Both the position numbers and the translations under genes were made by a program. This document shows, one piece after another, positions 2,022 through 43,677 of a stretch of DNA of 64,000 nt. The stretch lies in the NCBI GenBank assembly GCA_032718475.1, contig JAUCBJ010000603.1:1-64000 (forward strand), in the 5' to 3' direction. The notes under the pieces are model-generated. The model was not told where the DNA came from. It did not search any database and saw nothing but the letters and a program-made list of their open reading frames with translations. The stretch's first letter is position 1; each line of letters opens with the position of its first letter. Source of the DNA: Nemertoderma westbladi (Eukaryota; Animalia; Xenacoelomorpha).

Positions 2022-3213
2022 TGTTCGTGCTTTTAGACCTTTAGCAGTTTAACCCGCTAATTTTAGGTGTCTTTTAGTTTGTAAATCGACTTTAGCCTAT
2101 GACGAGTATTGGATACACTACATTAGCCAAAGCCAGCCTATGCGCGACCACTCACCCGCTGGATTTACCTGGGAGACTGGATTCGGGGGCTCTGACCTTA
2201 TTGCGGTGTATGCCTTCTGTATTATTCGATTGATCGTTAATATATAATCTCTGACAAATATTATTCACTTTCGGGAAATATTAACAGTTCCCTTTGGACG
2301 TGGCGCTCTAAATATATAAACAGAGCTATGACTTACACTAAACACAACGGGATGGCTAATGATTCACGTATAAGGCGCATTCTTTAGGAGATGCTTTGTT
2401 ATCTGTCACAGTCATGCACACTACCGGTACCGCACAATACTGCACACTGATCTGCCGACCTTCACTAATTTTAGTCACATATAAAGAGAACAGCAATTGA
2501 CCCATGTAGTACCTATGAAATAGCATTAGATTCACTTCAAAACCACTTTAATGTAAGTCGCAATCGTTATATGTAACCGGTCTCTCTTACCTTCAGTATA
2601 TCAAGAAGATTGAGGGTTTGTAATTATTTATCGGTATTCCAAATATAATAATATTCCATCAACAGATATAATGAATAACCGACAGTAAATAGCAGTAAAA
2701 ATGTTAAGGCATAAATTGTTATGATATGTGATTTGGTATGGTATGATTAGTTAAGTAAGATAACAGATATACGTTCTATAATTAAGCCTACTAATGTTGG
2801 GCTAAAGACTGAAAACACAGAGATTCCAAAAGCCGGTCTTCTGGGCTCAGGACAAAATGTAAACATTGACCCATAATGCATTGCGCGATTTCCCGGAGGT
2901 TTCTGTACAAAAAGCAGGAGAATCGCTCTGATTGGTTGACCGAACAAAGAAACACCAGAGAACAAGGGAAAAGCTACACGTGTACAGCTCAGCTGTTAGC
3001 TGTCGTCATAGTAACTACACTGTTTCAAGAGGATCTAGCGCATTGCGTCATAGAATTGCTAATTATATCCGCTAAAGTACACATACAGAAGAAATGGCTT
3101 TTATGTCCTCTAAAACACCAGTACAGTAAGGACACGGCCTTTTATGCCTGTTAAACCAACTACAGAGTACTTTGCGGGGAAAATAACCGGCTAATTCCGC
3201 AAAAGCTTTTACA
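2022..3213 (-). repeat. 3' LTR of element A
   Basis: Direct repeat of 13951-15142, preceded on the minus strand by the PPT-like TTTTCTGGGAGCGG (3214-3227). Confidence 0.95.
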
Positions 3214-3290: not shown

Positions 3291-4931
3291 TTAGTCTTTC
3301 TTACGCGGACGGCGTTTACGCAGTTTTTTGACGCTAGCAAGAGTCCTTTTCTCTTTGGGGCGAGCCACTTTACTAGGAGGGCTGTAACTCCTGGGTGAAG
3401 GGTGCAATACAATTGCATCAGAAGGTTTAGGATTACGATCGGTGTATCCGCCGGTCGAGGTACCTGGTTGATCGATATCAACTTCAGTGGAGCGAGGTCT
3501 AACGGCCTTTAGGGCGCGTCTTAGGACAGCAGCTCCTACGGGTCCTTGACGGGTCGTCTGGACAATGGCGGTAGGTGGACCGTGAGTGGTGAGAAACTTC
3601 CTCGGTTTAATGGTTCTTTCCAGCTCGCGTTCTCGGGCTCGATATTCGTAGGGCCGTCGAGATACTTCCTGTAATTCAGGGTGCGAGTTGATAAATAAAT
3701 CGCCATACTCAGGGTCTTGACGGATGAAATTGATCAACTGATATGAAGTAATATCGTTAGGATTGACGTTCCTGAGATATTTTCGAACAAATTTGGTGGA
3801 AATACACTCACCAACACGCTTCATTAGTTCGTAACTCGGTGTGCGTGTTTTTTGTTCAACAGACGCGAATAAATAAGGATGGAACGCGTAAACTCCCTCG
3901 TAAGAGCGTCCAGGGTAATAGCGATGGCGGGACTCACAATGTAAATCCGCGTTCGCTTCCCAAGCTCGGATGTAGCGCAGGGTAATCATCTCATCTACGC
4001 TTTCTAAATCGCGGTTAAAGGGGCAATTATAACTGGCATGTCCTTTAAGTTGACAGTGGTGGCATTGAGTCATAAATTGGGGGCAGACTGCAAAAATGTG
4101 CGAGTTATTAAGTCTGCAATACGCACAATAGATCTCCATCATCAGTTGTTTGTGGAAATAGGAGCAGGGTATGTCTGAGTCGAACGAGCGTAGGTGATAC
4201 GTCAAACAAATTTCGCTCGAAACTCCCGTAAGTATAGCGAGTAAAACCGTGTTTAGTGCAACGTCTCCGCGGATGTTTAGGTCTTTCCGTTTGTTGGTTG
4301 GGTCTAGGGCACCCATCGCAATAATACCAAAGACGCACGTCTTGTAGGGGAAACGCGAGTGATCTCTCTCCAGTTCACAACACTCCCCCATCTGCTCGAA
4401 GCCATCCGGTACAACAGGTAGCGGTCGATCGGCGGTAAGATACATCATAGTGGAACAGAGCCGCTTGAGTTCCACCATGCGGTCATGATGTATACCTTGA
4501 GGATATCGAGTTTCTAGATTCTGTTGACTGGTAATATTGAGATATGTTTCTCTCAAGAATTCAAGATATTTGTTGAAGTCACTGCGTTTATCCGGCTCTT
4601 CAACATCTTCACTTTCGAGTCGGTTTCGAATAGAATTTTCGTGTTCGAGTCTCAGTTTATCGTTCCGCTTCCGCTGGGTATGATATTTAAATAAAACCAT
4701 TTCCCTTTCGGTGTCTATATCGTCCGTATCGTGTAGGTCGATAGGATGACCAGTAGTTAAGAAGTCCATATACGTACCATTACGATGCGTATAGCGAGCG
4801 GTGAATTTTCTATAGTCCAACTCAAGCGTGAGCTGCTCTTGGGACATTGGCGGTTTGATATAACGACCATCGTCCTCCGCAGCAGTTGGACCAGCATCGC
4901 CGCGTATTAAGCTATCAACAAACGCCTGCAA
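3291..4931 (-). CDS. Extra 3' ORF of element A: 546-aa tandem CCHC zinc-knuckle protein with a basic C-terminus, probably expressed by splicing
   Basis: Uninterrupted ORF containing CAYCRLNNSHIFAVC-PQFMTQ-CHHCQLKGHASYNC and ending KKLRKRRPRKKD. It starts at TTG inside an acceptor-like CTCTACTGTTGCAG|G (AG at 4927-4926). Confidence 0.8.
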   Translation of the reverse strand: MQAFVDSLIRGDAGPTAAEDDGRYIKPPMSQEQLTLELDYRKFTARYTHRNGTYMDFLTTGHPIDLHDTDDIDTEREMVLFKYHTQRKRNDKLRLEHENSIRNRLESEDVEEPDKRSDFNKYLEFLRETYLNITSQQNLETRYPQGIHHDRMVELKRLCSTMMYLTADRPLPVVPDGFEQMGECCELERDHSRFPYKTCVFGIIAMGALDPTNKRKDLNIRGDVALNTVLLAILTGVSSEICLTYHLRSFDSDIPCSYFHKQLMMEIYCAYCRLNNSHIFAVCPQFMTQCHHCQLKGHASYNCPFNRDLESVDEMITLRYIRAWEANADLHCESRHRYYPGRSYEGVYAFHPYLFASVEQKTRTPSYELMKRVGECISTKFVRKYLRNVNPNDITSYQLINFIRQDPEYGDLFINSHPELQEVSRRPYEYRARERELERTIKPRKFLTTHGPPTAIVQTTRQGPVGAAVLRRALKAVRPRSTEVDIDQPGTSTGGYTDRNPKPSDAIVLHPSPRSYSPPSKVARPKEKRTLASVKKLRKRRPRKKD

Positions 4932-5794
4932 CAGTAGAGTATATCTCCCCTGACACCAAGATCATCTTCTATCAACTCAGTCATATCTGCTATATGAGTT
5001 TATTAATATTATAATGAGTTTATATTTAGGCTAGCGGGCGTCGCTGCCTACCCCTCTCTGCCCCCGGACAGTGCAAGATCCTCAGCGCTGGTGTACTTTC
5101 GCCGATGTGCCTATCACCAACGTCGTAGCTGCACAACGACCACAACAAGTCACTCCACCGTCCGTCCCAAAGGCTTAGATATACTTCAGGTTCTTACTGG
5201 AGAGTTAGGGCTACTTTCACAATTGCGACTCGCTACTGTAAACACACTTTAGTCGTAACATTCACCTATAAACGCACAAATTCCACACAACTGTCACAAA
5301 CTGTACACATTCGGGCAATTTGTCCGTTAGTCAGTGCCTTCCAGAATGTCACTTTATTATTATGTATCCTTGGATACTAACAGTGCGCTATTTATTCCCT
5401 ATGCTATTCAATGGGACAAGCTTTCTATTGCTCTTTTAACTTACTTCTAATTCTAGCGTGGTTGTTGCCATGGTGACATTATGGAAAGCTAGCGGTAGAA
5501 TTAGGGTAATTCTCATGCATACAGATCTGGGATGCTATTTAATAGTAATTCTTTAATTGTCAATATCCTCTCTATACATGATTTTATGAATTTTATCGGC
5601 TATTGACTATATATTGGAGATTCTCGCACACTAATACACTTAATAGAGTGAATCTCCGCTCCCATGATCTATTAATTAAAGGAATTTTGGGAATATTATA
5701 AATTGCATGAAAATGACAATTTATTAAATTCATTAAAAATATGAATTTAAATTTATTCCCGTAAATTTTATTATTTAATATTAAATAGACACAA

Positions 5795-6075
5795 TTTTAT
5801 TCCAGAACATGTCTGGGGACTAGGATCCTTGATTCTAGGAAATTGGTCTTTTTAAGAATATCGGTAAGTGCTACGATATCTTAATAGACTAGGATTTTGA
5901 AGGATCTAAAATTTGACAGATTTTGTAAATATTAATAATTAATATTTAGGATGGGCACCAGTTTATTCCAGAACTTGTCTGGGGACGTTAACCACTGATT
6001 CTAGAATTTTGTCTTTCAAGTATATCAGTGGGTGCCGCGATATCTTAATCGACTAGAATTACAGATGGTCAAAGG
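5795..6075. repeat. Diverged ~165-bp direct duplication in the spacer between pol and the extra ORF of A
   Basis: TTTATTCCAGAAC(A/T)TGTCTGGGGAC...GATTCTAG...GATATCTTAAT occurs twice. Confidence 0.7.
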
Positions 6076-6608: not shown

Positions 6609-9600
6609 TTACGTTGGGGAGTCCCTAGATGTTTGTTGGATTAGGGAGGTGGTCGTGGGAAGAGTATCTTGCCTTCCATAGTTTCCGGACAGTTCTCGGT
6701 CTCTTTCCAGTAAACATAAACGACCAACTGGGCGATTGAGCTGCTGTGTCTCGAAGACAATTCCAGGTTTCCTCTTCGTCCTGGAATAGTGACGATAGAA
6801 ACATCGCTTCAAATACACGACGGCCTTACAAAGCCGATTCCAGGATCTATAGTGGTCCATCGCTCCCGGCAGGAGAGGTGAGAGTCCCGGCGAGACGTCT
6901 GGTATTCCAGATCTCCAGTCTCTCTCTCTGATCTCCACAACAGATCGGTTCGCGGTGGGGGAGTTTAGATCCACAGCGTCGTCCCTGGCAATGTGTAATA
7001 CAGACAGATCTATCACGGGTTTAAATAACCTTGATTTACTCGTCCGGGTTTTAGGTTTGACTTTCTCCGCTCCCTTGGCTTGTCTAATCTCAGCCGTGGT
7101 AAGATGGGGAGGCCATTCATCTTCTTTACATAGGAAGTCGGGTCCACCTAACCAGTCTGGAGAATCTGTCAGTTCTTGATGAGTTGCTCCTCTGGAAGCG
7201 ATGTCGGCTAGATTAATCGTCTCGGGGCAATGTCTCCATTGATCTACATTGGAGTTAATATCGTCATTATCTGAGGAGTATGGTGTTCCCTCAGTTGGGT
7301 CGTCTAACTCACTGCTCTCCGCTTCCCATTCACTTACTTGGTATACCCGTTCTTTTGGTAACCTTTCTATGAGAGTTCTACGGGAAGGGCCAGTAAGGTA
7401 CCAACCTACTCTAGTTCTTCCCGCATAGGCTTGTAGTGGTTGCGGTTGAGCAGGCCGTTTCTCCAATGTCTCAAGCGCCTCATGCGCATTTTGGCCGATG
7501 AGTATTTGCACTCCAGGGTAGTCTGTGTTGAATCTAGGTATATTAAGCTGCTGGGTGGAATCGTCCTCATCCCAGTTATAAGGTTCTACTTGGCTGGTAG
7601 CGAAGTTCTTTATCGCCACCATTTTTACTGACCTTATGCTGTGTTCTCCTAGTTCATCCTGGGGGGTGGACAACGCACCTACATAATAATCCGTTATTAC
7701 TGTAGATTTCCAAACCTGCATAATTCCTGACATGTTTAACTTAGTTCGGAACTTGGGTTGTCCAGCAAAGATGTCTTCGGCTAGTTCTTTGTCGATGAAT
7801 GTTCCTGTGCTACCGGAGTCAAGGAGGACGTTCACTGTATAACTCCTTTTAAGTCCGTGGACCCTTAACTGTACTACTGGAAATTCTCGGATTCCTACAT
7901 TGGAAGTTGGTGCTTTCCAAGATGGTTGTCGGTCAGAAGTAGTTAGGGGGAGCTCGCTGTCGGTGTCCTTTCCATACGTAAGTGCTCGATACACTGCGGT
8001 ATTTATCAGGTAACAGGATTCGTTTTCGTCGGAGAATTCGTCCGTATAGAATCCTTCCATCTCAGAACTTTGGTCAGTGTCGTTCACATCACTGAATTGG
8101 ACATGTAGTTCGGACTCACTTACCTGACTCGGGCTGTTTCGATCGAATTCAGTGTGCAACAAGATATGATGTTTTACGCCGCACTTTGCACACCTTGCGT
8201 CGGAATAACAGGTTCGCCGTTGGTGTCCTCGTCTGAGGCAATTATAACACAACCGCTTATCCCACATGACCTCACGTCTGTCCTTTAGTGATTTCCTCAG
8301 GAATTCATCACACGCATTTAAACGGTGGGGCCCGTCACACAGCACACATTTTGGTTTGATGTTACTTACCTTACTTTGGGTAACGTTGTGCACACTCGTT
8401 CTTTCCTTGGGCTTTCTTACATGAATTCTCTTAGGAGACGTAGGAGGAGTTTTTCTTACCTGTTTTCTCCTGTCATTGGTTCGAGACTTGAATTTACTTA
8501 CGTCCTTCGGCGCTTTGTTGTCATAGTGAGATCTTTCAGTGTCTTTCCCGCTGTCTTCCTCTTGAGAAGCCTGGCTTTCGCCGTCATCTGTATAACACAC
8601 TGGTATTACCGTTCTCATAGAAACGGGTTTCTCACTTACCTTGTCTTCCGGTGTCTTCTCTCTGGACTGCCTTAGGAGCTGTAATTTTACCTCTCCATCT
8701 AAGAATGACATGAGATCAGCCATGGTATGGTCTCGTCGTTGTTGTTCCATCATATATAACACTTTCTTGTCCCAGCGTGTACCTACTCCACCCTTGGGCA
8801 AAGTAGATGCTAAGGCTCCTACAACCATAGAATTCTGGTATTCATGAGACTTACCTAACCAATCTAGTTGTCTACAGATCTCCTGAATCTCGTCGGAAAA
8901 CTCTATAATCCCGCTGCTAAGAAACTTTCGGGGCGCCATTAATTTCGCATATAAATACCTAGCTATGTTAGTCCTATTACTATACCTGATGTTCAGTGTA
9001 TCCCAAACTTGTCTTAATCCATCTGGATGTCCAATAAACTTTAACGCCATTAACTTGGGAGATCCTTCCAAGCACTTGATGAGGAATCTAAGTTTCTCTC
9101 CATTAGATAGCACAGAGTTCTGTATGTTATCTTTGTAATATTCATTAAAAGGTAACCATTTCATCTCATCTCCATTGAACTTGACTATCTCTCCCACCTT
9201 TACCGCTTGACGGGCTTCGGTTCTAGCCATTTGACGCGTAAAACTTTCTTGGGCCATCGTGTTATTTAATATCGAGTTATCGGTATATAAATTTCTCGGA
9301 TTATGATCAGGTCTATATGGAATATCATTGTCAACAGGTTTATAATTACCCTTAATAGGGTTTACTATAGGAGTTTCCACTTCGCTAGCAGTATAGATGC
9401 GTGTAGGCTCCACACCTTGCGCATGAAATACTTCAGACCTAACAGGTTGACACATTGTTACAGGGGGTGGTGGTATACCCCTTTGTGTATTTACTAATTT
9501 ATCGCGTTCTAACGCGATACTTTGCTGCACTTCTTGCAACTCTAACCTACTTTCCCTTACTGTGCCCTTGAACTGCTTAACAGTCTCCTGCATCTGCCCG

Positions 9601-10943
9601 AGCAGGAGATCCATCCCCCGCCGTCTCTCATCCACCCACTCGACCGCCGAAGCGGGAGCCGCCAACGTTGTAGCGGGCGGACGAGGGACAACGGGCGACA
9701 AATTATTAATATTTCGCTCGGAGTCCAGAACATGAACTGTCTCCTGGGCTGTTCTGCTGGGCACAGGTAGCTTAGTGCTCAAAGGGAATCTAGAGGTAGG
9801 TTCTGGGAGTACAGGTGTCTCTATCACCGAAGGGGTGGATTCGAGAACAGGCCTAATTATTTCAGGCTCATCTACTATAGTAGGGAGTCTGTCTATTTTA
9901 ATAATTTGGTCTAGGGGTTCTGTACTACCTAAGTCTGTGCTAGCTAGTTGTTTTCGAACAGTTGGGGGCAAATCAAGCAATTTCTGACGTTGGGACATTC
10001 TTCTACGTCTGCTGAGACGAGATCTATTTCCTCCACCTTCAGTATCGGTGGTATCGCCTTCCTCAGATGATGTATATCCTTGTCGTTTGGGAGTAGATCG
10101 ACTCATCATCTGCATTTGACTAGCTGTTAACTGTTTATTGAAGTTGTCCTGCCTCTCTTGAAGATTTTCCAACTCTAGTTGGGTTGTCTCTTCAGATGCC
10201 CTCCGTTCTGCCTCTGCCACTGCCGCTTTTCTTTCTGCTTCGGCCGATGCCACTGCCGCCTTTCTTTCCGCTTCGGCCGCTTTTCTTTCCGCTTCTACTT
10301 CTGCCGCTGCCGCTGCTGCTGTCTTTCTGTCTTCTATACGTTTTTTCCTTACTTGCTCCTCTTGAACCTTAGTGATGCGGATGCTTTCATTGAATTTAGC
10401 TTGGTTCGCAGCTAACCTATCCATATCGATTGCGTCCAACACAAGCTTGGCTCCTTCACTATTAGGGCTAAGTCCATCTAGCCTTCTCCTCAACTCTTCA
10501 TCTCCTACAAAACGTTGATAGTCCGACAGATAGATGTCAATAGCATCCCTCTTATGCGGTTTCTCCACCGTAGCTTCACTTTCCACTTGGGAAAATGTAG
10601 CGTCTGTGGATTCTCCATGGGTTGAGCACTCAGCTAACTGAGATTTCCACGGGGCAGTTCTTTGAACTTGGAGACTCACCCGCTGTAACCAAGTCTTTAC
10701 GGCAACTTGCAACGACGTGTCTTGTTTTCTTTTCGAAGCCTCCTCAAAGGCCGATAGGATTAGTCTGATTCTTAGAATTCTTTCTCGAACTTGATAAAGC
10801 AGCTCTCCCTGCTCTTGAGGTCCTTCTGGTTGTCTAAACAATTGTTCTTCTAATCGCTCCATGGAGCTGAAGAATCCCTGTACGTATCCGGCTGCGGACC
10901 TCTTCCACACAGCTGGATCGATGGTTTCCTTGGTTACTCCCAT
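6609..10943 (-). CDS. gag-pol: BEL/Pao Gag-protease polyprotein with an in-frame deletion of RT and most of RNase H; no integrase
   Basis: DUF1759-like Gag (KFNGDEMKWLPF...EKLRFLIKCLEG), three Cys/His knuckles, protease LLDSGS, then directly the distal RNase H motif QWRHCPETINLADIASRG...WLGGPDFL. Confidence 0.9.
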   Translation of the reverse strand: MGVTKETIDPAVWKRSAAGYVQGFFSSMERLEEQLFRQPEGPQEQGELLYQVRERILRIRLILSAFEEASKRKQDTSLQVAVKTWLQRVSLQVQRTAPWKSQLAECSTHGESTDATFSQVESEATVEKPHKRDAIDIYLSDYQRFVGDEELRRRLDGLSPNSEGAKLVLDAIDMDRLAANQAKFNESIRITKVQEEQVRKKRIEDRKTAAAAAAEVEAERKAAEAERKAAVASAEAERKAAVAEAERRASEETTQLELENLQERQDNFNKQLTASQMQMMSRSTPKRQGYTSSEEGDTTDTEGGGNRSRLSRRRRMSQRQKLLDLPPTVRKQLASTDLGSTEPLDQIIKIDRLPTIVDEPEIIRPVLESTPSVIETPVLPEPTSRFPLSTKLPVPSRTAQETVHVLDSERNINNLSPVVPRPPATTLAAPASAVEWVDERRRGMDLLLGQMQETVKQFKGTVRESRLELQEVQQSIALERDKLVNTQRGIPPPPVTMCQPVRSEVFHAQGVEPTRIYTASEVETPIVNPIKGNYKPVDNDIPYRPDHNPRNLYTDNSILNNTMAQESFTRQMARTEARQAVKVGEIVKFNGDEMKWLPFNEYYKDNIQNSVLSNGEKLRFLIKCLEGSPKLMALKFIGHPDGLRQVWDTLNIRYSNRTNIARYLYAKLMAPRKFLSSGIIEFSDEIQEICRQLDWLGKSHEYQNSMVVGALASTLPKGGVGTRWDKKVLYMMEQQRRDHTMADLMSFLDGEVKLQLLRQSREKTPEDKVSEKPVSMRTVIPVCYTDDGESQASQEEDSGKDTERSHYDNKAPKDVSKFKSRTNDRRKQVRKTPPTSPKRIHVRKPKERTSVHNVTQSKVSNIKPKCVLCDGPHRLNACDEFLRKSLKDRREVMWDKRLCYNCLRRGHQRRTCYSDARCAKCGVKHHILLHTEFDRNSPSQVSESELHVQFSDVNDTDQSSEMEGFYTDEFSDENESCYLINTAVYRALTYGKDTDSELPLTTSDRQPSWKAPTSNVGIREFPVVQLRVHGLKRSYTVNVLLDSGSTGTFIDKELAEDIFAGQPKFRTKLNMSGIMQVWKSTVITDYYVGALSTPQDELGEHSIRSVKMVAIKNFATSQVEPYNWDEDDSTQQLNIPRFNTDYPGVQILIGQNAHEALETLEKRPAQPQPLQAYAGRTRVGWYLTGPSRRTLIERLPKERVYQVSEWEAESSELDDPTEGTPYSSDNDDINSNVDQWRHCPETINLADIASRGATHQELTDSPDWLGGPDFLCKEDEWPPHLTTAEIRQAKGAEKVKPKTRTSKSRLFKPVIDLSVLHIARDDAVDLNSPTANRSVVEIRERDWRSGIPDVSPGLSPLLPGAMDHYRSWNRLCKAVVYLKRCFYRHYSRTKRKPGIVFETQQLNRPVGRLCLLERDRELSGNYGRQDTLPTTTSLIQQTSRDSPT

Positions 10944-11072
10944 CCTGTGTATGTCTTCCCAGGCAGCTTCCGATAAGTCAAACGGGAGTCCGGGTCTGGG
11001 GAAGTTCCATTGCGACTCGACGATAGACTTCAGTTCTTCCCTTGTGTATCCCGCATAACTATCCTTAGTCGA

Positions 11073-11498
11073 TCACCCACTTCTCGCCCAATCAATCTGG
11101 TGTTCCTCCACTGCAATCAATAACCTAGTGAGTATGGCTGCAGGAAGGATGAGAAGGGGATCCGAATAAACCGCATCTGTCATCTTTGCTCCGTGCTCGG
11201 GTGTCAGCTCTACAGTATCCGCACTACTGGAGCTGTCGGGCCGCTGAGAAATAAGTTCTCGGCTCGCGGGTTGTTGCTGTTCCGCTGCTTCTTGGTCCCG
11301 CTTGACCTGAGCTCGAGTGCCTATGATAGACCTACGGTGTTGGACCAGCCTAGGGTCTGATATTACTACTGGGGGAATGATCTTTCTTACAGTAGGAGGT
11401 GAGTTGAACTTCGGTCTCACAAGTTTCACACTCCTGTCTGGGTCACAGATGGTGGTATCTAGGAGACTGTCTGACAGGTTTTGCTTTGTGTCAGACAT
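11073..11498 (-). CDS. N-terminal part of the element A Gag ORF, separated from the rest by one in-frame TGA
   Basis: Same frame as 6609-10943, and 11072-10944 is open, giving ~1629 codons with one stop. Confidence 0.7.
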   Translation of the reverse strand: MSDTKQNLSDSLLDTTICDPDRSVKLVRPKFNSPPTVRKIIPPVVISDPRLVQHRRSIIGTRAQVKRDQEAAEQQQPASRELISQRPDSSSSADTVELTPEHGAKMTDAVYSDPLLILPAAILTRLLIAVEEHQIDWARSG

Positions 11499-11629
11499 GT
11501 TTGTTGGTAGAGTTGAATGCCTACTGCTATGTTACAGTTAAAGCAAATCTAGTAAATCAGTATCAACTGATAGCCTAGTAATTAATTACCGATATCGTCA
11601 CTGAATGTAACTTGATATATATATAATAT

Positions 11630-13950: not shown

Positions 13951-15142
13951 TGTTCGCGCTTTTAGACCTTTAGCAGTTTAACCCGCTAATTTTAGGTGTC
14001 TTTTAGTTTGTAAATCGACTTTAGCCTATGACGAGTATTGGATACACTACATTAGCCGAAGCCAGCCTATGCGCGACCATTCACCCGCTGGATATACCCG
14101 GGAGACTGGATTCGGGGGCTCTGACCTTATTGCGGTGTAGGCCTACTGTATTATTCGATTGATCGTTAATATATAATCTCTGACAAATATTATTCACTTT
14201 CGGGAAATATTAACAGTTCCCTTTGGACGTGGCGCTCTAAATATATAAACAGAGCTATGACTAACACTAAACACAACGGGATGGCTAATGATTCACGTAT
14301 AAGGCGCATTCTTTAGGAGATGCTTTGTTATCTGTCACAGTCATGCACACTACCGGTACCGCACAATACTGCACACTGATCTGCCGACCTTCACTAATTT
14401 TAGTCACATATAAAGAGAACAGCAATTGACCCATGTAGTACCTATGAAATAGCATTAGATTCACTTCAAAACCACTTTAATGTAAGTCGCAATCGTTATA
14501 TGTAACCGGTCTCTCTTACCTTCAGTATATCAAGAAGATTGAGGGTTTGTAATTATTTATCGGTATTCAAAATATAATAATATTCCATCAACAGATATAA
14601 TGAATAACCGACAGTAAATAGCAGTAAAAATGTTAAGGCATAAATTGTTATGATATGTGATTTGGTATGGTATGATTAGTTAAGTAAGATAACAGATATA
14701 CGTTCTATAATTAAGCCTACTAATGTTGGGCTAAAGACTGAAAACACAGAGATTCCAAAAGCCGGTCTTCTGGGCTCAGGACAAAATGTAAACATTGACC
14801 CATAATGCATTGCGCGATTTCCCGGAGGTTTCTGTACAAAAAGCAGGAGAATCGCTCTGATTGGTTGACCGAACAAAGAAACACCAGAGAACAAGGGAAA
14901 AGCTACACGTGTACAGCTCAGCTGTTAGCTGTCGTCATAGTAACTACACTGTTTCAAGAGGATCTAGCGCATTGCGTCATAGAATTGCTAATTATGTCCG
15001 CTAAAGTACACATACTGAAGAAATGGCTTTTATGTCCTCTAAAACACCAGTACAGTAAGGACACGGCCTTTTATGCCTGTTAAACCAACTACAGAGTACT
15101 TTGCGGGGAAAATAACCGGCTAATTCCGCAAAAGCTTTTACA
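13951..15142 (-). repeat. 5' LTR of element A
   Basis: Direct repeat of 2022-3213. It is not followed by a TGG tRNA PBS. Confidence 0.95.
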
Positions 15143-23345: not shown

Positions 23346-24590
23346 AGTAGTAGGGTCTTGGGCGGCTCTGCGACAGTTAGACCCAACTGACACCCATTGG
23401 GTGTCATATGACACCCAATTATCACCCTATGGGTGTCATTGGGTGTCATTGGCGCCAGACTGTCTGGGTGACACCTCCCAATTAGGCTAATTAGACCCTA
23501 ATTGACAGGTGTCATCAATTAATTAGTACAATTAAACCCTAACAGGTGTCATATGACTCCTAATTAGGGTTTAATTGATTATCCTAATTAATCAGACTGA
23601 TTAGCGCCCTGACACACAATGGGTCATCAGTGTTGTCTAACTGTCGCAGAGCCGGCTCAAGAGGGTGTCATAAGTGACACCGCAGCCCTTTTTTCATTAA
23701 TACTTATTTATTTAGATTTAATTTTAATTAATTAATTGTATTCTATTTTACTTTATTTATTCATTTGTACTTTATTTTAAATTAATTAATTGTATTACTT
23801 TTACTTTATACATTGATTTTTATTTTTAGAATAATTAGTTTTTGCCAATGAGATCACTATGACATAATGTCTATTTTTAACTTTATAATGGCTATGGTAT
23901 ACGGCTCCCTACTGGCAACTATCAACTACGTTCATCGGCGGGGACCCCTCCTCTATCCTCATTATTCATTAACTAGATACAACAGGCAGTGAATCTATAC
24001 GTATACCCCCAAGGCAAATATAAATCAGCGGTCCCGGCTGTTAGCAGCCCCCTCGATGACTCACTAATAATCCCAATGCGGCCTTGACTACACCAAATCC
24101 GTATATCGCTCAAGGCTAATGCTCTAGCGGCCCTCCTTTGTTCTCACTATGGCATCACTTGGGTCCTTTCCTATATCCAGGCAGCCGGTATCATAACAAT
24201 GAAGCGCCTCTAAACATGCATTCCTCTCTACTAATCCCTTTCCTTTGCACCAGACCTGCTTCTGTTATACAGTCAACTCAACATAATTAGTCAAGTTGCC
24301 TACAGGAGTTTTCTAATATAGATTCATCAACACGAGAAGTTGCCCTGGTTACCGCTTATGCATGAACAGCCAATCAGCGGGGATCATTTCTACTGCTGCG
24401 CTCTGATTGGCTCATTTAAGAGACAAGGGCCTCCCTTAATAACCGAATTGCTATTTAATACATCCCCACCAATATATTAGGTCATTATTTCAATTGCAAG
24501 TTACGATTAACATCATTTACCATTATTTTGTTTTCGAATTTAATATTATTTATTAAGAATATTTATTTGTTATCATCAGTCAACAACCCA

Positions 24591-27222: not shown

Positions 27223-27334
27223 TCTAAGTTTTATATTAAAAAGTTTTATTTATTTTCATAAAAGTTTAATTTATTTAAAATTTTGTAAAATCATTTAGCT
27301 AAAATTCAATATTATCAATTGACATTGCTATATA

Positions 27335-28387
27335 ATGCATAGACATGAAAGTTGTTTGGTTTGTAATAAAGAAATGAGACAAGACAATTTATCTCGTCAT
27401 ATGGAAACACATGGAAAGGAAAAACTAATGGCTCCATTACCAAAAAAATTTAAAAAATCCGAAGATATTTTTAGTGAAGATGAAAAGAAAAAGAGAGATG
27501 AGCGTGATATATTAAATATAAAACAGACAATGGAAAGTAAATTTCATAAAGTTATGAATATTTTGAAAGGGATACAAAAACAGTTACCCCTAGAAAATGA
27601 GGAAAATTTGAGTGAGAAAGATGGAGAAGAAGAGGATGATGAGATGGAGAATGAAAATAGTGAGGGTCAGGATGAAGTTGAAGAGAGTGAAGTTGAGAAC
27701 GAAGAAAGTGAAGATCAGGATGATGATGAAGAAAGTGAAGGTCAAGAAGAGGGTGAAGATAGCGAAGGTCAGGAAGAGAATGAAGAAAGTGAAGAACAGG
27801 AAGAGGATGAAGAAAGTGAAGAACAGGAAGAGGATGAAGAAAGTGAAGGCGGGGAAGAGGATGAAGAAAGTGAAGGTCAGAAAGAGGGTGAAGAAAGTGA
27901 AGATCAGGAAAGTGGAGAAGAGGATGAAAATGATGATAATGAGGAAATAAAGAGGCAATTACTTGGAAATAAGAATCAATTGCGGAAAATTATTAAACAT
28001 TTGAAGGAAAATGAAGAAAATAAAGAGGCGACATTGACCCAAGTCCTAGGAAGTAAAATTAAATTACAGAAATTTATTAAACATTTAGAAGAGAATGATG
28101 AAAATAAAGAAGAGATATTGAGACAAATATTAGGAAACAAAAATCAAATGCGGAAATTTATTAAACAAATGGAAGAAAATGAGGAAAATAGAGAAGAGAT
28201 ATTAAGACAGGTTCTGGGAAATAAAAGTAAATTACTGAAAATTAATGAACAATTGAATAAAATTAAGAAACAGTTGGGTAATGAGGAAGATGAAAGTAAA
28301 GTAAATCAACCAGCTTTTACTAATTTTCGAAGACCTATGATAAAAAACTCTCGTTCAGTATATGCCCGCGCAGGACGACGCTATTGA
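27335..28387 (+). CDS. 350-aa protein: N-terminal C2H2 zinc finger, basic NLS-like motif, long Glu/Asp tract and ~27-aa helical repeats
   Basis: Intact ATG ORF with CLVCNKEMRQDNLSRHMETH, PKKFKK, (EEQEEDEESE)n and about four EEILRQILGNKNQ-type repeats. Confidence 0.8.
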   Translation: MHRHESCLVCNKEMRQDNLSRHMETHGKEKLMAPLPKKFKKSEDIFSEDEKKKRDERDILNIKQTMESKFHKVMNILKGIQKQLPLENEENLSEKDGEEEDDEMENENSEGQDEVEESEVENEESEDQDDDEESEGQEEGEDSEGQEENEESEEQEEDEESEEQEEDEESEGGEEDEESEGQKEGEESEDQESGEEDENDDNEEIKRQLLGNKNQLRKIIKHLKENEENKEATLTQVLGSKIKLQKFIKHLEENDENKEEILRQILGNKNQMRKFIKQMEENEENREEILRQVLGNKSKLLKINEQLNKIKKQLGNEEDESKVNQPAFTNFRRPMIKNSRSVYARAGRRY

Positions 28388-29414
28388 CATTTGTTTGTTT
28401 GAGTTCCTTTCATAATAGTGTTAGGGCTATTTATCCAAAACAATTATATTAGTATTAGGACTATTTATCCATAACAATTATAATAGTATTAGGACTATTT
28501 ATCCATAATAATTATATTAGTATTATAAATGTATTTACCCCACAATATTTATTACTATTAGGTCTATTTATTCAAGAAATTATATGTTTTTATAATATAC
28601 TTTGGAAAATTGGTCGACTAAGTCATAATTTTTAAAACTTTAAATACGGGTTGAGTTATTTTATAAAGTTAAGAAGAATGAACCAATAGAGGCAACCTGA
28701 AGTCTAATCTCTTGGCCTTTACTCACATTAACTCCCAAGGTTGCATACTATCACTATAGCTGGGAGAGTCAAAGCTAGTGGTCACTAGAGTCAGCCGAGT
28801 GCTAGGAAAAAGAATAATGCTCTTCTAGGGTTCGAACTCACGACCTTCTAATTAGAAAACTAAGCAAATGGTCAGCTTGAAGACCTTAGACCCTTAATCT
28901 GAGGCATCGAGCAGCCAATGAGACAGCAGATGCGAGTACAGTGGTAAAGCCCATCCATGGTGAGGCATAGTCTATGCCTCAATGAGGCATAGTCTATGCC
29001 TCAGTGAGTCATATTCTATACAAATAATTAATTAAAATTAAATATAAATAAATAAGTATTAATGAAAAAAAGAGCTGCGGTGTCACTTATGACACCCTCT
29101 TGAGCCGGCTCTGCGACAGTTAGACAACACTGATGACCCATTGTGTGTCAGGGCGCTAATCAGTCTGATTAATTAGGATAATCAATTAAACCCTAATTAG
29201 GAGTCATATGACACCTGTTAGGGTTTAATTGTACTAATTAATTGATGACACCTGTCAATTAGGGTCTAATTAGCCTAATTGGGAGGTGTCACCCAGACAG
29301 TCTGGCGCCAATGACACCCAATGACACCCATAGGGTGATAATTGGGTGTCATATGACACCCAATGGGTGTCAGTTGGGTCTAACTGTCGCAGAGCCGCCC
29401 AAGACCCTACTACT

Positions 29415-31537: not shown

Positions 31538-31839
31538 TTAGTTCGTGGGGCCTTCGCGCAGCACGGAGTGCGCAAAGCCATTAGCATATGGGCAGCATTA
31601 ACGAGTTGTCTGCTGTTAGTCAGAAGTCTTCAACACAATACTCGTCCTCCTCTTGTGCCCTGTTGCGTTCGTTCGATTCTTTCTAACCTTTTGACGGACT
31701 ACATACATACCAAGTTTCGTTTAATTTCATCAAGGAATAACCGAGTTATTAGCGATCAAAAATTGACGATGATGACGACATATGACGATGACGATGACAG
31801 ACGACGACGACAGACTGACGGCACCAATGGCACCCATAT
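31538..31839. mobile_element. Small Helentron/HINE- or MITE-like element interrupted by element B (continues at 59182-59220)
   Basis: ATACCAAGTTTCGT motif and a GAC/GACA microsatellite. The rejoined right end CCCATATGCTAA-GGCTTCGC...GCCCCAC is an inverted repeat of GTGGGGC...GCAAAGCC-A-TTAGCATATGGG (31545-31592). Confidence 0.6.
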
Positions 31840-32888
31840 TGTTCGCGCTTTTAGACCTTTAACAGTTTAACCTGCTAATTTATGTGTCTTATAATGTCTG
31901 ACAGCCTGTACAAAATATGACCACAGTAGAAGCCAGTCTAGCGCGGCGTATGACCCTCTGTGTGTGGGAGACTGGATTCTATGGCAGAGAGAGGAGTAGA
32001 CTAATTTGTATTATTCGATTGGTTTCTACTATATAATCTCCAAAAACTACGTTTATTTTCAGGGAAATACCAACAGTTCCTTTCAGGTGCTGCGCTTTAA
32101 GTATCACGCAGAGTTATGACTTATACTAATTACAATGGATGGGCATGAGATAACGCAAATGTTTACATTCTTTATGAATGTATTATTAATCGTACACACT
32201 CACGCAACTGACAATAGTACTGAAACACACCAATTTGCCGACTGTTACCAATTTTACTCATATATAAGGGGAAATTTAGCTCACCTACATTGGGGACTAT
32301 GAAACAGCATTAACTCCTACAAACCACTGTTATTTGAGCTAGGCAATTGTGACTAGTCTTCCCCTCCGCTTACCTCAGTAATCAAGAAAACCAAGAGAGT
32401 TATTCGTGAGTATTCTCCAAACATTAGCATTAATCAAATTCGGTTACAAACCACAATATATTATATCAGCATAAAACAGTATATAGTATCAGTATACAGT
32501 GTCAACAGTCAGACAGTGCAAGTTTGATAATCAGTGAGAGCAAGTAAGTAAGTTAAGTTAGATTTGCGTTCTAAGATCTCTCTGGCCACTGATGTTTCTG
32601 GGCAAAGTCAGAAAGTCAGAGTGTGACAGAAAGTCACAGGAAGTGAAGATTTGCCGTATTGCATCATTTTATATATATCACCATGGCATGAATTCGAAAA
32701 TCGCGCTGATTGCCCGAAATATAACATGAGCTCTACGCATAACGAAACAGCTGAAGATTTCGTCATTTGCAACTCAATACCAAAACAGACGATAGAGGGC
32801 ATAAACCTATAAATTCTATAGTGCTATAAAATAATTCTGGCACATTTAGAGTAGTTCGCGAATTGCACAAAAATGCCACATTTTTGCC
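31840..32888 (-). repeat. 3' LTR of B (first ~15 bp deleted)
   Basis: Homologous to the A LTR; 32327-32888 matches 58597-59161. Confidence 0.9.
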
Positions 32889-33077: not shown

Positions 33078-33494
33078 TGTGATATTGTATTATGGCATGG
33101 TGTATTATTGGACTGATTAGTATGTATTGTATAGGTTAGGTAGGTATGATATAGTAGTATCTTGTTAGCACCTAGGGTGTGAACAGTCGGTTGTACGATA
33201 GCTGTCAGGGATATAGTCCTGGGGGCAGGGCGCAGTCAGTAGTTATCATTCAGTTTAGTTATTGCGATGACTTACCGGTGTAGGGTTGTCAGTCATGTTT
33301 TGTAGGTAGTTCGTTATTAGTTTCATTGTCTGATTGTATCACATCATTATTTGTTATTCATGTATCTCAATACACAATATACTGATATACTGCAGCTGGT
33401 TTCCTAGTTTTACTTCAGTCTTCTCCAGCTCACCCCTCGAGCGGGATAGTGCGTGGCCGTGGATCCGGGACCGGGCGCAGATAGCGCTTCCACA

Positions 33495-33511
33495 TGGGGG
33501 CTCGTCCGGGA
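33495..33511 (+). other. Primer-binding site for tRNA-Pro
   Basis: TGGGGGCTCGTCCGGGA, 17 of the 18 nt of the classical MLV tRNA-Pro PBS. Confidence 0.93.
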
Positions 33512-33927
33512 GAAGAGAAACTGACAGTCTGACAGGCCTACTGCGCTACCCGCTACCGGAAACAGGTACTCTAACTCTGTCTGGCCTACCAGGCTATCGC
33601 TACCACGACCAACTACCGTACCCATCACTGCATCAGGCAGTCAGACTGTCGGTGGCGGGTCTCTGCAGCTCTGACGATTATTCCACTGTATGCCTGCGCG
33701 TCGACCCGAGCGCAAACGAGCTGGAAGCGTTAACTTTCCCACGGGTAAGCCTTCCTATCGGCAGAAACTGCGTTCCGCTTCTGGTTCTCCTCATCCAGAC
33801 AGCACGGACGAACATTCGTTCCTCTACAAGTCATCGGGAGCTGCTTCAAAGTTGTGTCGTGGTTCTCTCTCGCCCTCGTTACACGGATCGCGACAGCAAT
33901 GGGGATCCTTGAACCGATCAATTTCAG

Positions 33928-34232
33928 GGCCGCCGACTACTCGACGACGAGATTCGCCAACGGTTGCTCCGCCGACTACTCGATGACGGGATTCTCCAAC
34001 AGTTGCTCCGCCGACTACTCACGACGAGATTCTCCAACGGTTGCTCCGCCGACTACTCGACGACAGGATTCTCCAACAGTTGCTCCGCCGACTACTCGAC
34101 GACGAGATTCTCCAACGGTTGCTCCGCCGACTACTAGACGACGGGATTCTCTGACGGTTGCTCCGCCGACTACTCTATGACGAGATTCTCCAACAGTTGC
34201 TCCGCCGACTACTCGACGACGAGATCCGACTA
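33928..34232 (+). repeat. 39-bp tandem repeat (~8 copies) in the Gypsy 5' UTR
   Basis: CCGCCGACTACTCGACGACGAGATTCTCCAACGGTTGCT. Confidence 0.93.
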
Positions 34233-35683
34233 TGGAAAGCATCCGCAAGGAACCGGACTGCTTTGATGGTTCTGGTGATTTCGAGGCGTGGAACAGATCG
34301 GTGCAACGGATCGCCAGACTCAGGGGGCGGAAGAACGACGCTCTCGGTAAGATTGTGCCTGTTTATTTAACCGGTAGGGCTGCACGTGTCCTTGATGAAC
34401 TGGCTGAACACGAACAGGAAAACTATGATGCAATTCGTGATATTTTACGTGCCCGTTTTTGCCCCCAGGATACTAGTTTTGTGTACAATGAATTACTAGA
34501 TCGTAAACAGAAGGTGGGGGAAACTATTTATGAATTTTCCGATATTATAACTAGTTTAGGGGTACAATCTTTTCCGGGAATGAGCACTGAGCGACGGGAA
34601 CTTTTACTTTTGCCAATATTTTATAGAGGGATTTCCCCTGAATTAGCGAGAAGTATACGGTTAACAGAACCGCGCAATTTTGGGGAGGCAGTTCACCGTG
34701 CTAGGCGCGAGGAACTTTATTTAAGACAGGAAAATAATGGTATATTTGGCTGTGAATTGGGCGATCGTAGGGACCAGAGTAATAGGCCCAGGGAACCGCC
34801 TCCCAGTCCCAGACAAACTTCATACAGGAAGGTTAGTTTTTCAGAACAGTCCCCAAAACAGACTGATATGAGTTATCCAGAAAGACAACTGAAGGACTTA
34901 CAACTGAAACTGTCCAATCAGACACCAAATACCAGTAGCTACCCACGCGCCAATTATAATAATAATTATAGCCGCGATAATCACGGTCGGGGACAGAATA
35001 ACTGGTTTGACCCCAACGCAAGGTGGACTGGTACTAGCGGTATGGGCAACTCACGGGACAGCAGTAACAGAGGGTTTACACTACGATCTAATAACTACAG
35101 TAGCAACAGTTCGGTTACTTGCTACAACTGTGGGGAACCGGGACATTATAACCGAAATTGCACTAGACCAGGTACGAATACCAACTCAAATCCTAACAGG
35201 CAATACTCTAACCCGAATTACAACCCTAACCCTACTTATAACCCTAACCCTAATTTTAACCCTAATCCCAATCCTAACACAAACCGGGATTTAAATCCCA
35301 ATCCAGCTTCAATGTACACAGCTGTAGTGTCCAATAAACTAGACATGCATTTACCAGTAAGAATCGAAAATGAGGATGGTGAAGCATTTTTAGATAGTGG
35401 CTCACATTATTCCCTGATAGATGTTAGGAAACTCCCATCCGGTGTGCAGTTGCGTGCCCTTTATTTACCACCTATTAGCGGTATAGGGGGACAGGTTAAA
35501 CCTATGGGATTGGCTACTTTACAAATATCAGTTACAAGCAATTTTTCGGTTTCCCTCGAGGTCCACGTAGCAGACTTATCTTGTGTTGGGATTCCCCCAT
35601 TTCTGTTAGGGTTAGATTTCGTAAGTATTGCTTGTGCGTCCATAGATTTTCTAGACAGATGTTTGGTTCTAACCAACCAGTAA
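34232..35683 (+). CDS. gag: Gypsy Gag with CCHC knuckle and aspartic protease
   Basis: PDCFDGSGDFEAW, CYNCGEPGHYNRNC, AFLDSGS, FLLGLDF. Confidence 0.92.
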   Translation: MESIRKEPDCFDGSGDFEAWNRSVQRIARLRGRKNDALGKIVPVYLTGRAARVLDELAEHEQENYDAIRDILRARFCPQDTSFVYNELLDRKQKVGETIYEFSDIITSLGVQSFPGMSTERRELLLLPIFYRGISPELARSIRLTEPRNFGEAVHRARREELYLRQENNGIFGCELGDRRDQSNRPREPPPSPRQTSYRKVSFSEQSPKQTDMSYPERQLKDLQLKLSNQTPNTSSYPRANYNNNYSRDNHGRGQNNWFDPNARWTGTSGMGNSRDSSNRGFTLRSNNYSSNSSVTCYNCGEPGHYNRNCTRPGTNTNSNPNRQYSNPNYNPNPTYNPNPNFNPNPNPNTNRDLNPNPASMYTAVVSNKLDMHLPVRIENEDGEAFLDSGSHYSLIDVRKLPSGVQLRALYLPPISGIGGQVKPMGLATLQISVTSNFSVSLEVHVADLSCVGIPPFLLGLDFVSIACASIDFLDRCLVLTNQ

Positions 35684-38600
35684 AGAGTGTACTTTGCGAG
35701 GTTAAACACGCCCAGCAACGCTGGTAACGGTAAGTGTACAAACCCTTTTTGTTGTTTTGTTTCTGCGATAGATAAGACTACGATCCCAGCAGGGACACAG
35801 GTGAGACTGGCAGGGAAATTGTATGATAATGGATTATTAGCAGAGTCGGTAATGATAGAGCCGTTAGTAAAATCAAGGGGTTCATATCTAACTGCGCGAA
35901 GTGTAGTTTCTAACCCATTGGATGGATCAGGTAAGGTCCCAGTGCAGTTATTAAATCCGAATAACTACCCCGTTACAATATATCGCAATCAGAAAATTGC
36001 ATTATATTGTACAGTAGATAATGATAGCTTCAATAAAGAAGTTAAACAAGACTCAGTAGAGCGCGACATACAAAGGGAGTATTTAGCTAAGGAATTACCG
36101 TTAGATCATTTGGAGCCTCAGCAGAGGACCCAGTTAATAGATATTGCTACTCAACATGCTGCGGCGTTTTCCTTTGGAGATTGCGATATAGGTAAGACTG
36201 ACCTATTAGAACATAGACTCCCACTTAAACCAGAGGCTAAGCCCTTTTACACGAGACCACGTACAGTACCTATGGGGCTTAGGAAAGAGATTGACAAACA
36301 GGTAGGCAATATGTTAGCCGCAGGTGATATTCAACCTAGCAACAGTGAGTGGGGGGCACCAATAATATTAAGTAAAAAAAAAGATGGTAAGTGGCGGTTT
36401 TGCGTTGATCTTCGCCGCCTTAACGCTGCGGCTGTGCCACAATTTTGGCCTTTGCCGCGCATAGACGAAATGTTGTCGGAAATTGGCACAGCACGGCCCA
36501 AATATTTTACGACACTCGATTTTAAATCGATGTTTTGGCAGGTACCCTTAGCCGCTGAAGATACACATAAAACCGCTTTCGTAACACATAGTGGCCATTA
36601 CGAATTTGTTAGAATGCCCTTTGGCCTCCAGTCCAGCCCTTCTGGCTGCCAGAATCTTATGCAATTAGCATTGCATGGTATCGAGTACGTTCTCGTTTAC
36701 CTCGATGACGTCATACTGTATACCCGGGAATGGGACACCCACGTAAGTACTATTATCATTCTATTACGTAGAATTATCGATCTCGGCTTGAAGCTCAAAC
36801 TAAGTAAGTGCATGTTCGGGGCGACATCTGTAAAATTCCTAGGCCATGTGATAGATAGCTCAGGGCAGCATATGGACAAGGATAAGGTTCAAGCCATGGT
36901 TGATTTTCCGCGACCGGCCAATGCAAAGCAACTTTATAGCTTCCTAGGATTATGTGGCTACTATAGGAAATTTATTAAGGATTATGGTAAGATTGTAGCT
37001 CCCTTGAACGTGTTGCTAAGGAAAAACCAAGAGTTCGTATGGACAAGCGATTGTGAGCAGGCCTTTACATTCCTTAAGAAATGCCTAATTAATAACCCTA
37101 TTCTAGAACACCCTGATTTCGACCAGCCATTTTACCTAGAGACTGACGCTAGCGGTATAGCTTTAGGAGCTGTTTTATATCAGGATGCGGGCGTAATCGC
37201 TTACTCATCGAGGTCGCTAAGCAACGCTGAGAGAAAGTGGTCCATTACGGAGCTAGAGGCTTTAGCCGTGGTCTGGGCAATGCAGAAACACAGGTTTTAC
37301 CTCATTGGCCACGCATTTACGTTAGTTTCGGATCATAAACCACTCAGTTGTTTACAGACCAAACTCGAACTTCCAGGACGTTTGCAGCGATGGGCCGTTA
37401 AACTGTCTGAATTTAATTTCAATTTTGTTTACAGGCCAGGCCGACTTAACCGCGCTGATTGTCTTTCTAGAATACCATTACAGGTAACCCCTGGCAACCA
37501 ACGAGATGAAACCGTTTCTAATGAACCGGTTGCCATGGATACGTTACTTCCCCCTATGCATAATGACCCAGTCTCGTCAGATAATTATTGCTTCATAGGA
37601 CTAGCCAATTTAGACCTACATAATGATAGCGATAGACCAAACGCTGTTGAGGTGGACCTAGACAATGGCGTGCAGCCGCCAAAACCTAATCCATGTGACA
37701 TTCTAAGTTCCCCAGACAGACCCAACCACGATAGTGACGTCACATACATTATCAATAATGACAATAATAATAATTGGACACTTCCAGGCGGCCAACAGTA
37801 CTGCACATTAACTGCCTTGCGTAAGTTACAATCAGAAGACAATAACTTACAGCCTATGATTGATACATTACTGGACACAGCTGTTACAATAGCCGATGCC
37901 GATGTGCGCAAATCGCTACACGAGTATCGTTACATGCTCAAGTTTAGAGCACAATATGTTATGGTTGACAATATACTCTGCCATTTATCAACAAGTAACG
38001 GGAAATCGAAGGTACAGATTGTAGTTCCTAAGTTACTAAGGCAACAAATTATATCCATGTGTCACGATGAAAAGTCTCACATGGGTATTGATAAAACGGT
38101 AGGTGCTATCCATATGAAGTATTATTGGGTAGGTATAAAGGATAATGTTAAGCAGCACATTCGTGAATGTGACCCATGCCAGCGTAGGAAGGGCGTCCCT
38201 CAGACCCAACCACTGTCACCTCTCCCAGTCGTTGAACGTGTCTTGCAACACCTTTCAATTGATATCGTTAAAGGTTTCCAGACGTCATCTAAAGGTAACA
38301 AGGTTATCCTTACAGTAGTTGATCATCTTACTCGTTACGCTTCCCTCCTCCCGTTACCAAATGAAGAAGCCGCTACCGTTGCCAGGGCTTTAGTGGATGG
38401 TATTTTTCTTATATACGGCGCCCCCGAGAGTTTATTAAGCGATAGGGGTAGTAATTTCACGTCTAATTTATTCAAGGAATTAACTGCAATGTTTGGTATT
38501 GTTTCCGTATTTATGTCGGTATACCACCCAGCTTGCAATGGTCTTACAGAACGCATTAACCAGTTAGCTGTAAACATGTTATCGTTGACAGCTACCAACC

Positions 38601-39196: not shown

Positions 39197-40209
39197 CCAT
39201 TGACGCAAATTATGAGACGTAGTCGATGTGACTTGACTGTTTGCTGGTTACCATGGCTACATAGATAAATTGGATTTATTAACAATGAATAACTTTTGTT
39301 TGGAAAAAAAAAATTGTTATCCTGAAATATTTAGATATTGTGATTTTTTTAAATGGATGGATACATGTTTATGATAGATACTGTATGGATACATTTTCAT
39401 GTGATAGATACATGTATTAATTATTTACTTATAGCCTTTATTTATTGTGGCAGTGACACATTTTATGGATTGTACTATGGTCGGTTACTTACGGTGCGAT
39501 TTATAGATTGCAATTATGCTTGATATAGTGTTATTTGGTTACTCATTGTTGTACTCTCGTTGTACGTGTTATTCTTTAGTCATACTGGCGTACGATACAT
39601 GCAGTACGAAATTTCGATTTAGATATTATTGGCCTTAGGCTAGTTGAATGTATTGTTGGTATCGTGCTTCATATACAGTATCTTTATACTGCCGTTGAGG
39701 TAGACTTTACTTGTCGATGTAGTCATTAGACTTGGGGTTTGTAGTTTGTGCGTTCTAGAAACTCGTGGGCGAGTTTTTTTTAGGAAGGGGGATGTGATAT
39801 TGTATTAAGGGATGGTGTATTATTGGACTGATTAGTATGTATTGTATAGGTTAGGTAGGTATGATATAGTAGTATCTTGTTAGCACCTAGGGTGTGAACA
39901 GCAGGTTGTACGGTAGCTGTCAGGGATATAGTCCTGGGGGCAGGGCGCAGTCAGTAGTTATCATTCAGTTTAGTTATTGAGATGACTTACCGGTGTAGGG
40001 TTGTCAGTCATGTTTTGTAGGTAGTTCGTTATTAGTTTCATTGTCTGATTGTATCACATCATTATTTGTTATTCATGTATCTCAATACACAATATACTGA
40101 TATACTGCAGCTGGTTTCCTAGTTTTACTTCAGTCTTCTCCAGCTCACCCCTCGAGCGGGATAGTGCGTGGCCGTGGATCCGGGACCGGGCGCTGATAGC
40201 GCTTCCACA

Positions 40210-43200: not shown

Positions 43201-43677
43201 CCTCATTGGAAAACTCTATGATTTCATTACTAGGGAATTATTATTATTACCATTACTAAAATTTAATTAACCTAGTAATCTAGTATGTAACCTAGTAATA
43301 AACCTAGTAATTATCATTACTAGGGCTACTAATTTCGCATACAAGTATCTAGCTATGTTAGTCCTATTACCACACCTGTTGTTTAGTGTATCCCAAACTT
43401 GTCTTAGTCCGTCAGTATGTCCGATGAACTTTAATGCCATCAATTTGCGGGGACCTTCCAAGCACTCGATGAGGAATCGTAACTTTTCTCTGTTTGATAA
43501 TACATAGTTTTGTATGTTGTCCTTATAAATATTCATTAAAAGGCAGCCACTTCAACTCATCTCAGTTAAACTTGATGACCTCTCCCATCGTTCTAGCCAT
43601 CTGACTCGTAAAACTCTCCTGAGCCATCGTATTATTCAATATCAAATTATCCGAATATACATTTCTAGGATTATTGT
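40210..43677 (-). pseudogene. gag-pol: B gag-pro-RT, frameshifted
   Basis: Fragments KVRVVFDGSA, SDIEGMFLQV, IYMDDNL, GGFRLTKFTSN; Gag and PR fragments closely similar to A. Confidence 0.92.

Follow-up and report, generated by a model that had tools for sequence, protein, structure and literature searches.

A non-env third gene with a conserved domain in two BEL/Pao retrotransposons of Nemertoderma westbladi

Introduction

In the sections of the BEL/Pao reviews available to us, env is the only extra gene named for these retrotransposons. According to the accessible parts of PMC13524379 and PMC3118150, BEL/Pao env genes are Roo F-like or chuvirus/gB-like, and they occupy the same slot and orientation as the gene described below. 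Third genes of another kind are known from other elements. The bdelloid rotifer LTR retrotransposons Juno and Vesta carry an ORF3 of the DEDDy type, a gene that the available portion of Rodriguez et al. (2017; PMC5408684) presents as common to rotifer LTR and Penelope-like elements. In C. elegans, the Ty3/gypsy element Cer1 encodes CERV after pol and before its 3′ LTR, a non-env protein with a Cys-rich putative zinc loop and a basic nuclear localisation signal, which in the accessible passages of PMC10309623 is reported to be needed for export of the unspliced element RNA.

Here we analyse 64,000 nucleotides of the Nemertoderma westbladi genome (assembly GCA_032718475.1, contig JAUCBJ010000603.1, positions 1 to 64,000; hereafter the window). 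A first-pass annotation, made from the letters alone, had proposed an intact non-env accessory gene in one BEL/Pao element of the window (element A), homologous to a gene of a second one (element C). We compared both genes with each other, with their relatives among known proteins and with sequence variants of the A family.

Results

Element A is a non-autonomous BEL/Pao element with an open third frame

Element A (Table 1) belongs to BEL/Pao by its Gag DUF1759 domain, its protease, its TG...CA LTRs and its 5-bp target duplication (GGCGT), which lies inside a 31-bp satellite. It is not autonomous: a domain search of the window copy matched neither reverse transcriptase (RT) nor integrase, in agreement with the first-pass annotation, and the post-RNase H remnant in its gag-protease frame matches residues 1200-1249 of element C. 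After the first 152-codon stretch of gag, an in-frame TGA (11075-11073, minus strand) may be a private mutation or a read-through site, and the spacer contains a 164-bp duplication (5761-6060). Positions 1-71 and 517-1190 are inverted relatives of the A 3′ end and LTR (93% and 72%), so that a further copy of the family probably has its end where the window starts; a further LTR-like match to A lies at 31837-32273 (67%). The decayed element D, apparently interrupted by elements C and B, has its accessory gene outside the window. Being RT-bearing and A-like, it illustrates what sort of partner might provide RT and integrase.

Table 1. Coordinates of the BEL/Pao elements in the window and of their third genes.
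Feature	Position	Strand	Remarks
Element A 3′ LTR	2022-3213	-	TG...CA; 99.1% identity to 5′ LTR
Element A accessory ORF	3291-4961	-	556 codons stop-to-stop; first Met 4847
Basic C-terminal tail of A	3294-3332	-	17 Lys or Arg in last 60 residues
Conserved family domain in A	3846-4166	-	First-knuckle remnant, two CCHC knuckles, helical tail
N-terminal part of A protein	4167-4847	-	No exonuclease signal; no homologue found
Element A gag-protease frame	6609-11531	-	DUF1759, aspartyl protease, short post-RNase H remnant
Element A 5′ LTR	13951-15142	-	
Element D	40210-43790, continued 58063-58599 beyond C	-	Decayed RT-bearing A relative; 44-70% amino acid identity in Gag/protease
Element C 3′ LTR	43791-44247	-	98.2% identity to 57565-58021
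C third gene, basic tail segment	44952-45335	-	Beyond an in-frame stop
C third gene, middle	45339-45740	-	Three CCHC knuckles, helical tail; 91 bits with family profile
C third gene, 5′ part	46271-47515	-	Predicted EXD2/WRN-like DEDDy exonuclease domain, coiled coil
Element C gag-pol (BEL/Pao)	48841-54042	-	DUF1759, protease, RT, Peptidase_A17, integrase, DUF5641

The accessory frame, first reported as 546 codons at 3291..4931, proved real and somewhat longer, with 556 codons from stop to stop (4961-3291, minus strand); the chance of so many open codons from composition is about 3e-13. It lies 1.65 kb beyond the gag-protease frame, and 78 bp separate its stop from the 3′ LTR. As had been claimed for both A and C, the gene is non-env, occupies the env slot and runs in sense orientation. 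Pfam and PDB gave no fusogen match to the A protein, and the claimed lack of a signal peptide (judged from hydropathy) and of a transmembrane segment is likely to hold, with one reservation, a borderline hydrophobic stretch at residues 224-242 (mean hydropathy 1.71). The protein thus differs from BEL/Pao env in having no signal peptide or clear transmembrane anchor, and its knuckles are of the cytosolic type. Its basic tail suggests a nuclear localisation signal. At the 5′ end of the frame, a pyrimidine tract followed by CAG (4926-4940, minus strand) resembles a phase-0 splice acceptor. A simple splice from gag to the accessory frame was sought by eye and rejected, the phases of the candidate donors near 11075 being unsuitable.

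Several searches of the gene were uninformative. AlphaFold models built without alignments were unusable (pLDDT 39 and 36), single-sequence phmmer searches of PDB and Pfam scans of the A and C pieces returned nothing useful, and a weak Pfam match to EAD2 (E 0.005-0.02) lay under the cut-off. Word-index searches with the A ORF and the C exonuclease ORF gave zero matches, as did the N-terminal 255 residues of A among 48 proteins compared.

The third genes of elements A and C share a domain

Element C shows all the features by which BEL/Pao elements are recognised (Gag DUF1759, Peptidase_A17/DUF5641 and the order PR-RT-RH-IN), while its target duplication is indistinct, unlike that of A. At E 1e-5 no nucleotide match was found between A and C, in keeping with the reported lack of LTR similarity. 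A tandem repeat array (48021-48729) lies between pol and the third gene. This gene encodes, in order, an exonuclease, an acidic linker, three knuckles, a helical tail and a basic end; four stops in frame and a single frame change now disrupt it. The first-pass annotation, which spoke of an accessory ORF in C, had overlooked both these breaks and the exonuclease domain (47515-46274).

The knuckle spacing Cx2Cx5Hx4C-P-x5-Cx2Cx3GHx4C is identical in A and C, and the motifs quoted for the two proteins are present in both (C: 45740-45339). Taken alone the spacing is not unique, as yeast Air2 has nearly the same (E 0.2). Homology between the two genes was confirmed by tblastn (30% identity over 69 residues, E 2e-6), not over the whole ORF as the annotation implied, but for a domain of about 110 residues in the middle of the protein (approximately residues 256-362 of A). 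There A retains two knuckles, starting at 4127-4110 and 4064-4047, and a remnant of the first, where C has three; the helical tail that follows carries the motif ExxAD-R-G[VF]. The A-C score was reached by 0/1000 plain shuffles, by 1/2000 with Cys and His fixed and by 6/2000 with Cys, His, Gly and Pro fixed. In the domain tree comparison the two are 24% identical, and 12 of the 19 inner branches of the tree are open.

A search of the kind that had been suggested, with a two-sequence profile of the region common to A and C (E<=1e-3) against 1.84 billion proteins, returned 24 matches. Five of them were generic knuckle or low-complexity proteins (P0004, P0009, P0012, P0016 and P0020) and were removed before profile building; the remaining 19 were true members. 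All 19 are unnamed or "hypothetical" proteins with long single frames, and none matched a Pfam family at the curated cut-off. Common to them are C-Y-C, H, CP and C-x2-C-x2-RGH, followed by FExxAD, R and GF, and nine positions are invariant in an alignment of 19 rows (17 of the 19 homologues, A and C). A profile search aimed at longer proteins yielded P0015 alone. In P0003 the knuckle-helix domain is present in two tandem copies, and the exonuclease domain is without one catalytic acidic residue.

Conservation beyond a generic CCHC match is supported by the part of the domain after the last knuckle. A Cys-free profile of this tail scored 15.9 bits with A and 30.0 bits with C (0/500 shuffles as high for each), while all five generic knuckle proteins did no better than shuffles. 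Together with the Cys/His-fixed shuffles, this upholds the view that the A-C alignment is better than generic CCHC likeness. Air2 and LIN-28 (PDB 2lli, 2cqf) gave weak zinc-knuckle matches (E 0.2) with similar spacing, and the helical tail remained unmatched. With the whole family profile, A scored 55 and C 91 bits, values that are partly circular since both sequences seeded the homologue search; the knuckles of BEL Gag reached 5.5 and 13.9 bits, by which an origin of the domain from Gag was ruled out.

Both window copies (2/2) sit in the slot before a BEL 3′ LTR in the same orientation, and the domain is absent from the gypsy element B. A search for the relatives' loci in metagenome and viral contigs found none, and the tie to BEL consists of the two elements of this one window, which leaves the gene a candidate for the clade marker that had been proposed. 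The presence of the domain in C, a distant relative of A in which it follows a nuclease domain of RNA-trimming type, points to an old helper gene. As to the remainder of the window, element B (33078-40209, plus strand) is a young gypsy element with open gag and pol frames, 98.3% identical LTRs and no third gene seen. A 354-residue ORF (27323-28387, plus strand), which has acidic repeats and whose start resembles a zinc finger, is flanked by perfect inverted repeats of 349 nt (23346-23694 and 29066-29414), possibly a DNA transposon. A single-frame ORF of 345 residues (61503-62540, minus strand) has a signal-peptide-like start and a weak Pfam match to the pore-forming ETX/MTX2 domain (E 0.063, under the cut-off).

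The common form of the gene carries an exonuclease domain

The homologues had been chosen on the knuckle domain alone, without regard to their N-termini. Among the 19, seven contain a whole and two a partial exonuclease region; in the remaining ten, inspection by eye revealed none (nor did the profile in the four of them that were scored), and the majority of these ten are short, possibly fragmentary proteins. A profile of the homologue N-termini matched EXD2 (E 1.3e-9), WRN (E 0.005) and Egalitarian (E 0.03) along some 130 positions, the first acidic motif among them (PDB 6k17, 2fbt, 9uju), and Pfam DNA_pol_A_exo1 matched P0017 at E 0.011, under its curated cut-off. With a six-homologue profile containing no window sequence, the upstream ORF of C, which was never part of the search seed, was the best match in the window (E 2e-4 among 621 targets), with 0/500 shuffles as high and 87.8% in hhalign. 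The third gene of C is therefore an exonuclease plus knuckle gene. The A protein scored -1.4 bits with this profile (68/500 shuffles as high; hhalign probability 0.2%).

Judged by eye, the catalytic acidic residues of the DEDDy motifs look complete in five to six of the seven homologues but not in P0003; in C the first motif is retained and the second and third deviate. By these profile matches, a predicted exonuclease domain of EXD2/WRN-like type is part of the family's common form and connects the family with a known kind of gene, the DEDDy ORF3 found in LTR elements of rotifers. EXD2, WRN and Egalitarian themselves are host proteins without the knuckle-helix domain, and the match to them covers C and the homologues, not A. 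As far as the accessible text of the rotifer study goes, the likeness to ORF3 extends to a non-env third ORF past pol, a DEDDy-type 3′-5′ exonuclease (in C and the homologues), the absence of transmembrane or env traits and, in Vesta2/5, a Cys-His-Cys motif. In the same text, however, ORF3 is specific to rotifer lineages, RNase D-like and not reported from BEL/Pao, and its description contains no triple-knuckle-helix arrangement. Element A differs further in missing the nuclease altogether; these comparisons are by description, not by sequence.

Variants of the A family indicate purifying selection

The first-pass annotation had read the open frame of A, in an element that lost RT and integrase, as a sign of selection. 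Approximately 7.6 substitutions are expected in the ORF since insertion, with a chance of 0.71 of acquiring no stop without selection. Because the copy is young (99.1% LTR identity) and would be open in 71% of cases by default, openness as such is weak evidence; the stronger argument comes from variants of the family. These were taken from contigs of four runs, which reached each of the element's 30 bins at varying identities (120,110 contigs matched the A family in run X1; their depth is not a copy number). The ORF has 385 variant sites. Among the 40 best supported in the tool's ranking, each interpreted on its own relative to the codon of the window, 23 were synonymous where 10.7 were expected (p 4e-5) and none was a stop. 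The rough pN/pS over these 40 sites is 0.27, in line with the dN/dS below 1 that had been anticipated. Synonymous changes made up 7/9 variants in the domain and 13/26 of those listed in residues 1-254.

Of the best-supported 12 indels, none fell in the ORFs (p 2e-4), and gaps occurred in 4/16 contig pieces in the ORF versus 9/9 in non-coding DNA. Eight single-base indels are nevertheless listed inside the ORF, each in one or two contigs and some at high depth, so that a fraction of the family may carry a disrupted gene. In a like-for-like list, the gag-protease frame had no excess of synonymous variants (3/18, 4.9 expected), and the accessory gene had 5/9 (Fisher p 0.07). Based on these data, the accessory gene is very probably under purifying selection at the family level, i.e. 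a real selected gene.

Discussion

Tandem CCHC knuckles bind single-stranded RNA, and Air2 and LIN-28 are RNA-binding adaptors for RNA-end-modifying enzymes. From the domain make-up, the accessory protein may be an RNA-binding adaptor with the element's own transcript as its target, ancestrally joined to a nuclease, a reading that we hold to be about equally likely right or wrong. The knuckle-plus-helix domain would bind the element's own RNA, the bound RNA would survive better and leave the nucleus, and the basic tail would provide nuclear import. In the fuller form, of which C and seven homologues of environmental origin are examples, this domain follows a predicted 3′-5′ exonuclease domain that would be aimed at an RNA end. 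The A lineage would have replaced or eroded the nuclease, leaving a protein that acts by binding alone. RT and integrase would come to A from relatives of the D kind, and A itself would contribute Gag, protease and the accessory protein. RNA binding, the nuclear site of action, the preference for own RNA and the mobilisation in trans are steps that we infer. CERV is a possible functional analogue of such an adaptor, with no kinship to the accessory domain detected; as far as described in the accessible part of its report, it differs in its gypsy host, its splicing to gag exons, its C4-type loop, its G-protein-like domain and its lack of homologues outside nematodes.

Alternatively, the protein might antagonise silencing, which we consider rather unlikely. 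The nuclease form would degrade or trim small RNAs or their precursors, the nuclease-less form of A would sequester them or mimic host factors of the EXD1/Egalitarian type, and all copies would be protected in trans. Such a role would agree with the nearest folds by sequence (EXD2, WRN and Egalitarian), with an EXD1-like piRNA cluster among the leads for P0017 (score 0.81, a lead only; all leads for the homologues scored below 0.9), with the abundance and diversity of the A family in the reads, and with the silencing role raised for DEDDy ORF3 in the available portion of Rodriguez et al. (PMC5408684). A public good acting in trans would, however, be harder to keep selected in a non-autonomous family; selection in an RT-less element would rather favour a function on the element's own RNA.

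A second nucleocapsid-like chaperone inside the particle, whose nuclease form would trim the 3′ ends of primers or RNA while reverse transcription takes place, is unlikely. Nucleocapsid is called to mind by the tandem CCHC knuckles and the basic tails, retroviral NC was matched weakly (E 0.3-0.8), and by eye neither A nor C has a clear TGG-type primer site beside its 5′ LTR; Gag, on the other hand, has knuckles of its own, distant from the accessory domain, and 1.2-1.6 kb separate the accessory gene from gag-pol. We regard it as improbable that the domain comes from a family of host genes, or from a pool shared among unrelated mobile elements, and was captured separately by A and C, in which case it would mark no BEL clade. 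The two do not come out as sister sequences, their architectures differ, and DEDDy ORFs of rotifers were swapped between LTR and Penelope-like elements (PMC5408684, accessible portion), but separate capture has to explain the same slot and orientation in two deep BEL lineages (RT of D and C 30-36% identical) and the absence of the domain from gypsy element B, and long single-frame homologues outside any Pfam family would suit mobile elements better than spliced host genes. A chance open frame or generic CCHC likeness, for which the knuckle spacing of Air2 and the default openness of a young copy might speak, has next to no probability in view of the frame probability of 3e-13, the Cys-free tail test and the synonymous excess.

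The claim that the family is undescribed agrees, for BEL/Pao, with the literature as far as accessible, in which we found no description of the gene, although the element sequences accompanying PMC3118150 or entries of Repbase and Dfam may contain the ORF; it needs qualification in that the DEDDy ORF3 kind is known from rotifer elements (PMC5408684, available portion). New here are the BEL/Pao host, the EXD2/WRN-like type of the nuclease, the family of knuckle-helix domains and, in an element without RT, a selected version that has no nuclease.

If the adaptor reading is taken further, the genes may stem from a widespread, undescribed branch of BEL/Pao that carries its own regulator of RNA fate (Rev/CERV-like or anti-silencing) with an optional EXD2-like nuclease, kept by an amplified non-autonomous family that discarded RT and integrase; we put this forward tentatively, as somewhat less probable than not. 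BEL/Pao elements are usually viewed as gag-pol with an occasional env, whereas here a conserved non-env third gene is present in two deep lineages; its domain is not assigned to any Pfam family, and the relatives of this domain, all unnamed, number at least 19. Retention of the gene although the window copy is without RT and integrase points towards a step for which the element has to provide the means itself, and the contrast between A and C, without and with the nuclease, makes the role of retrotransposon DEDDy ORF3 testable.
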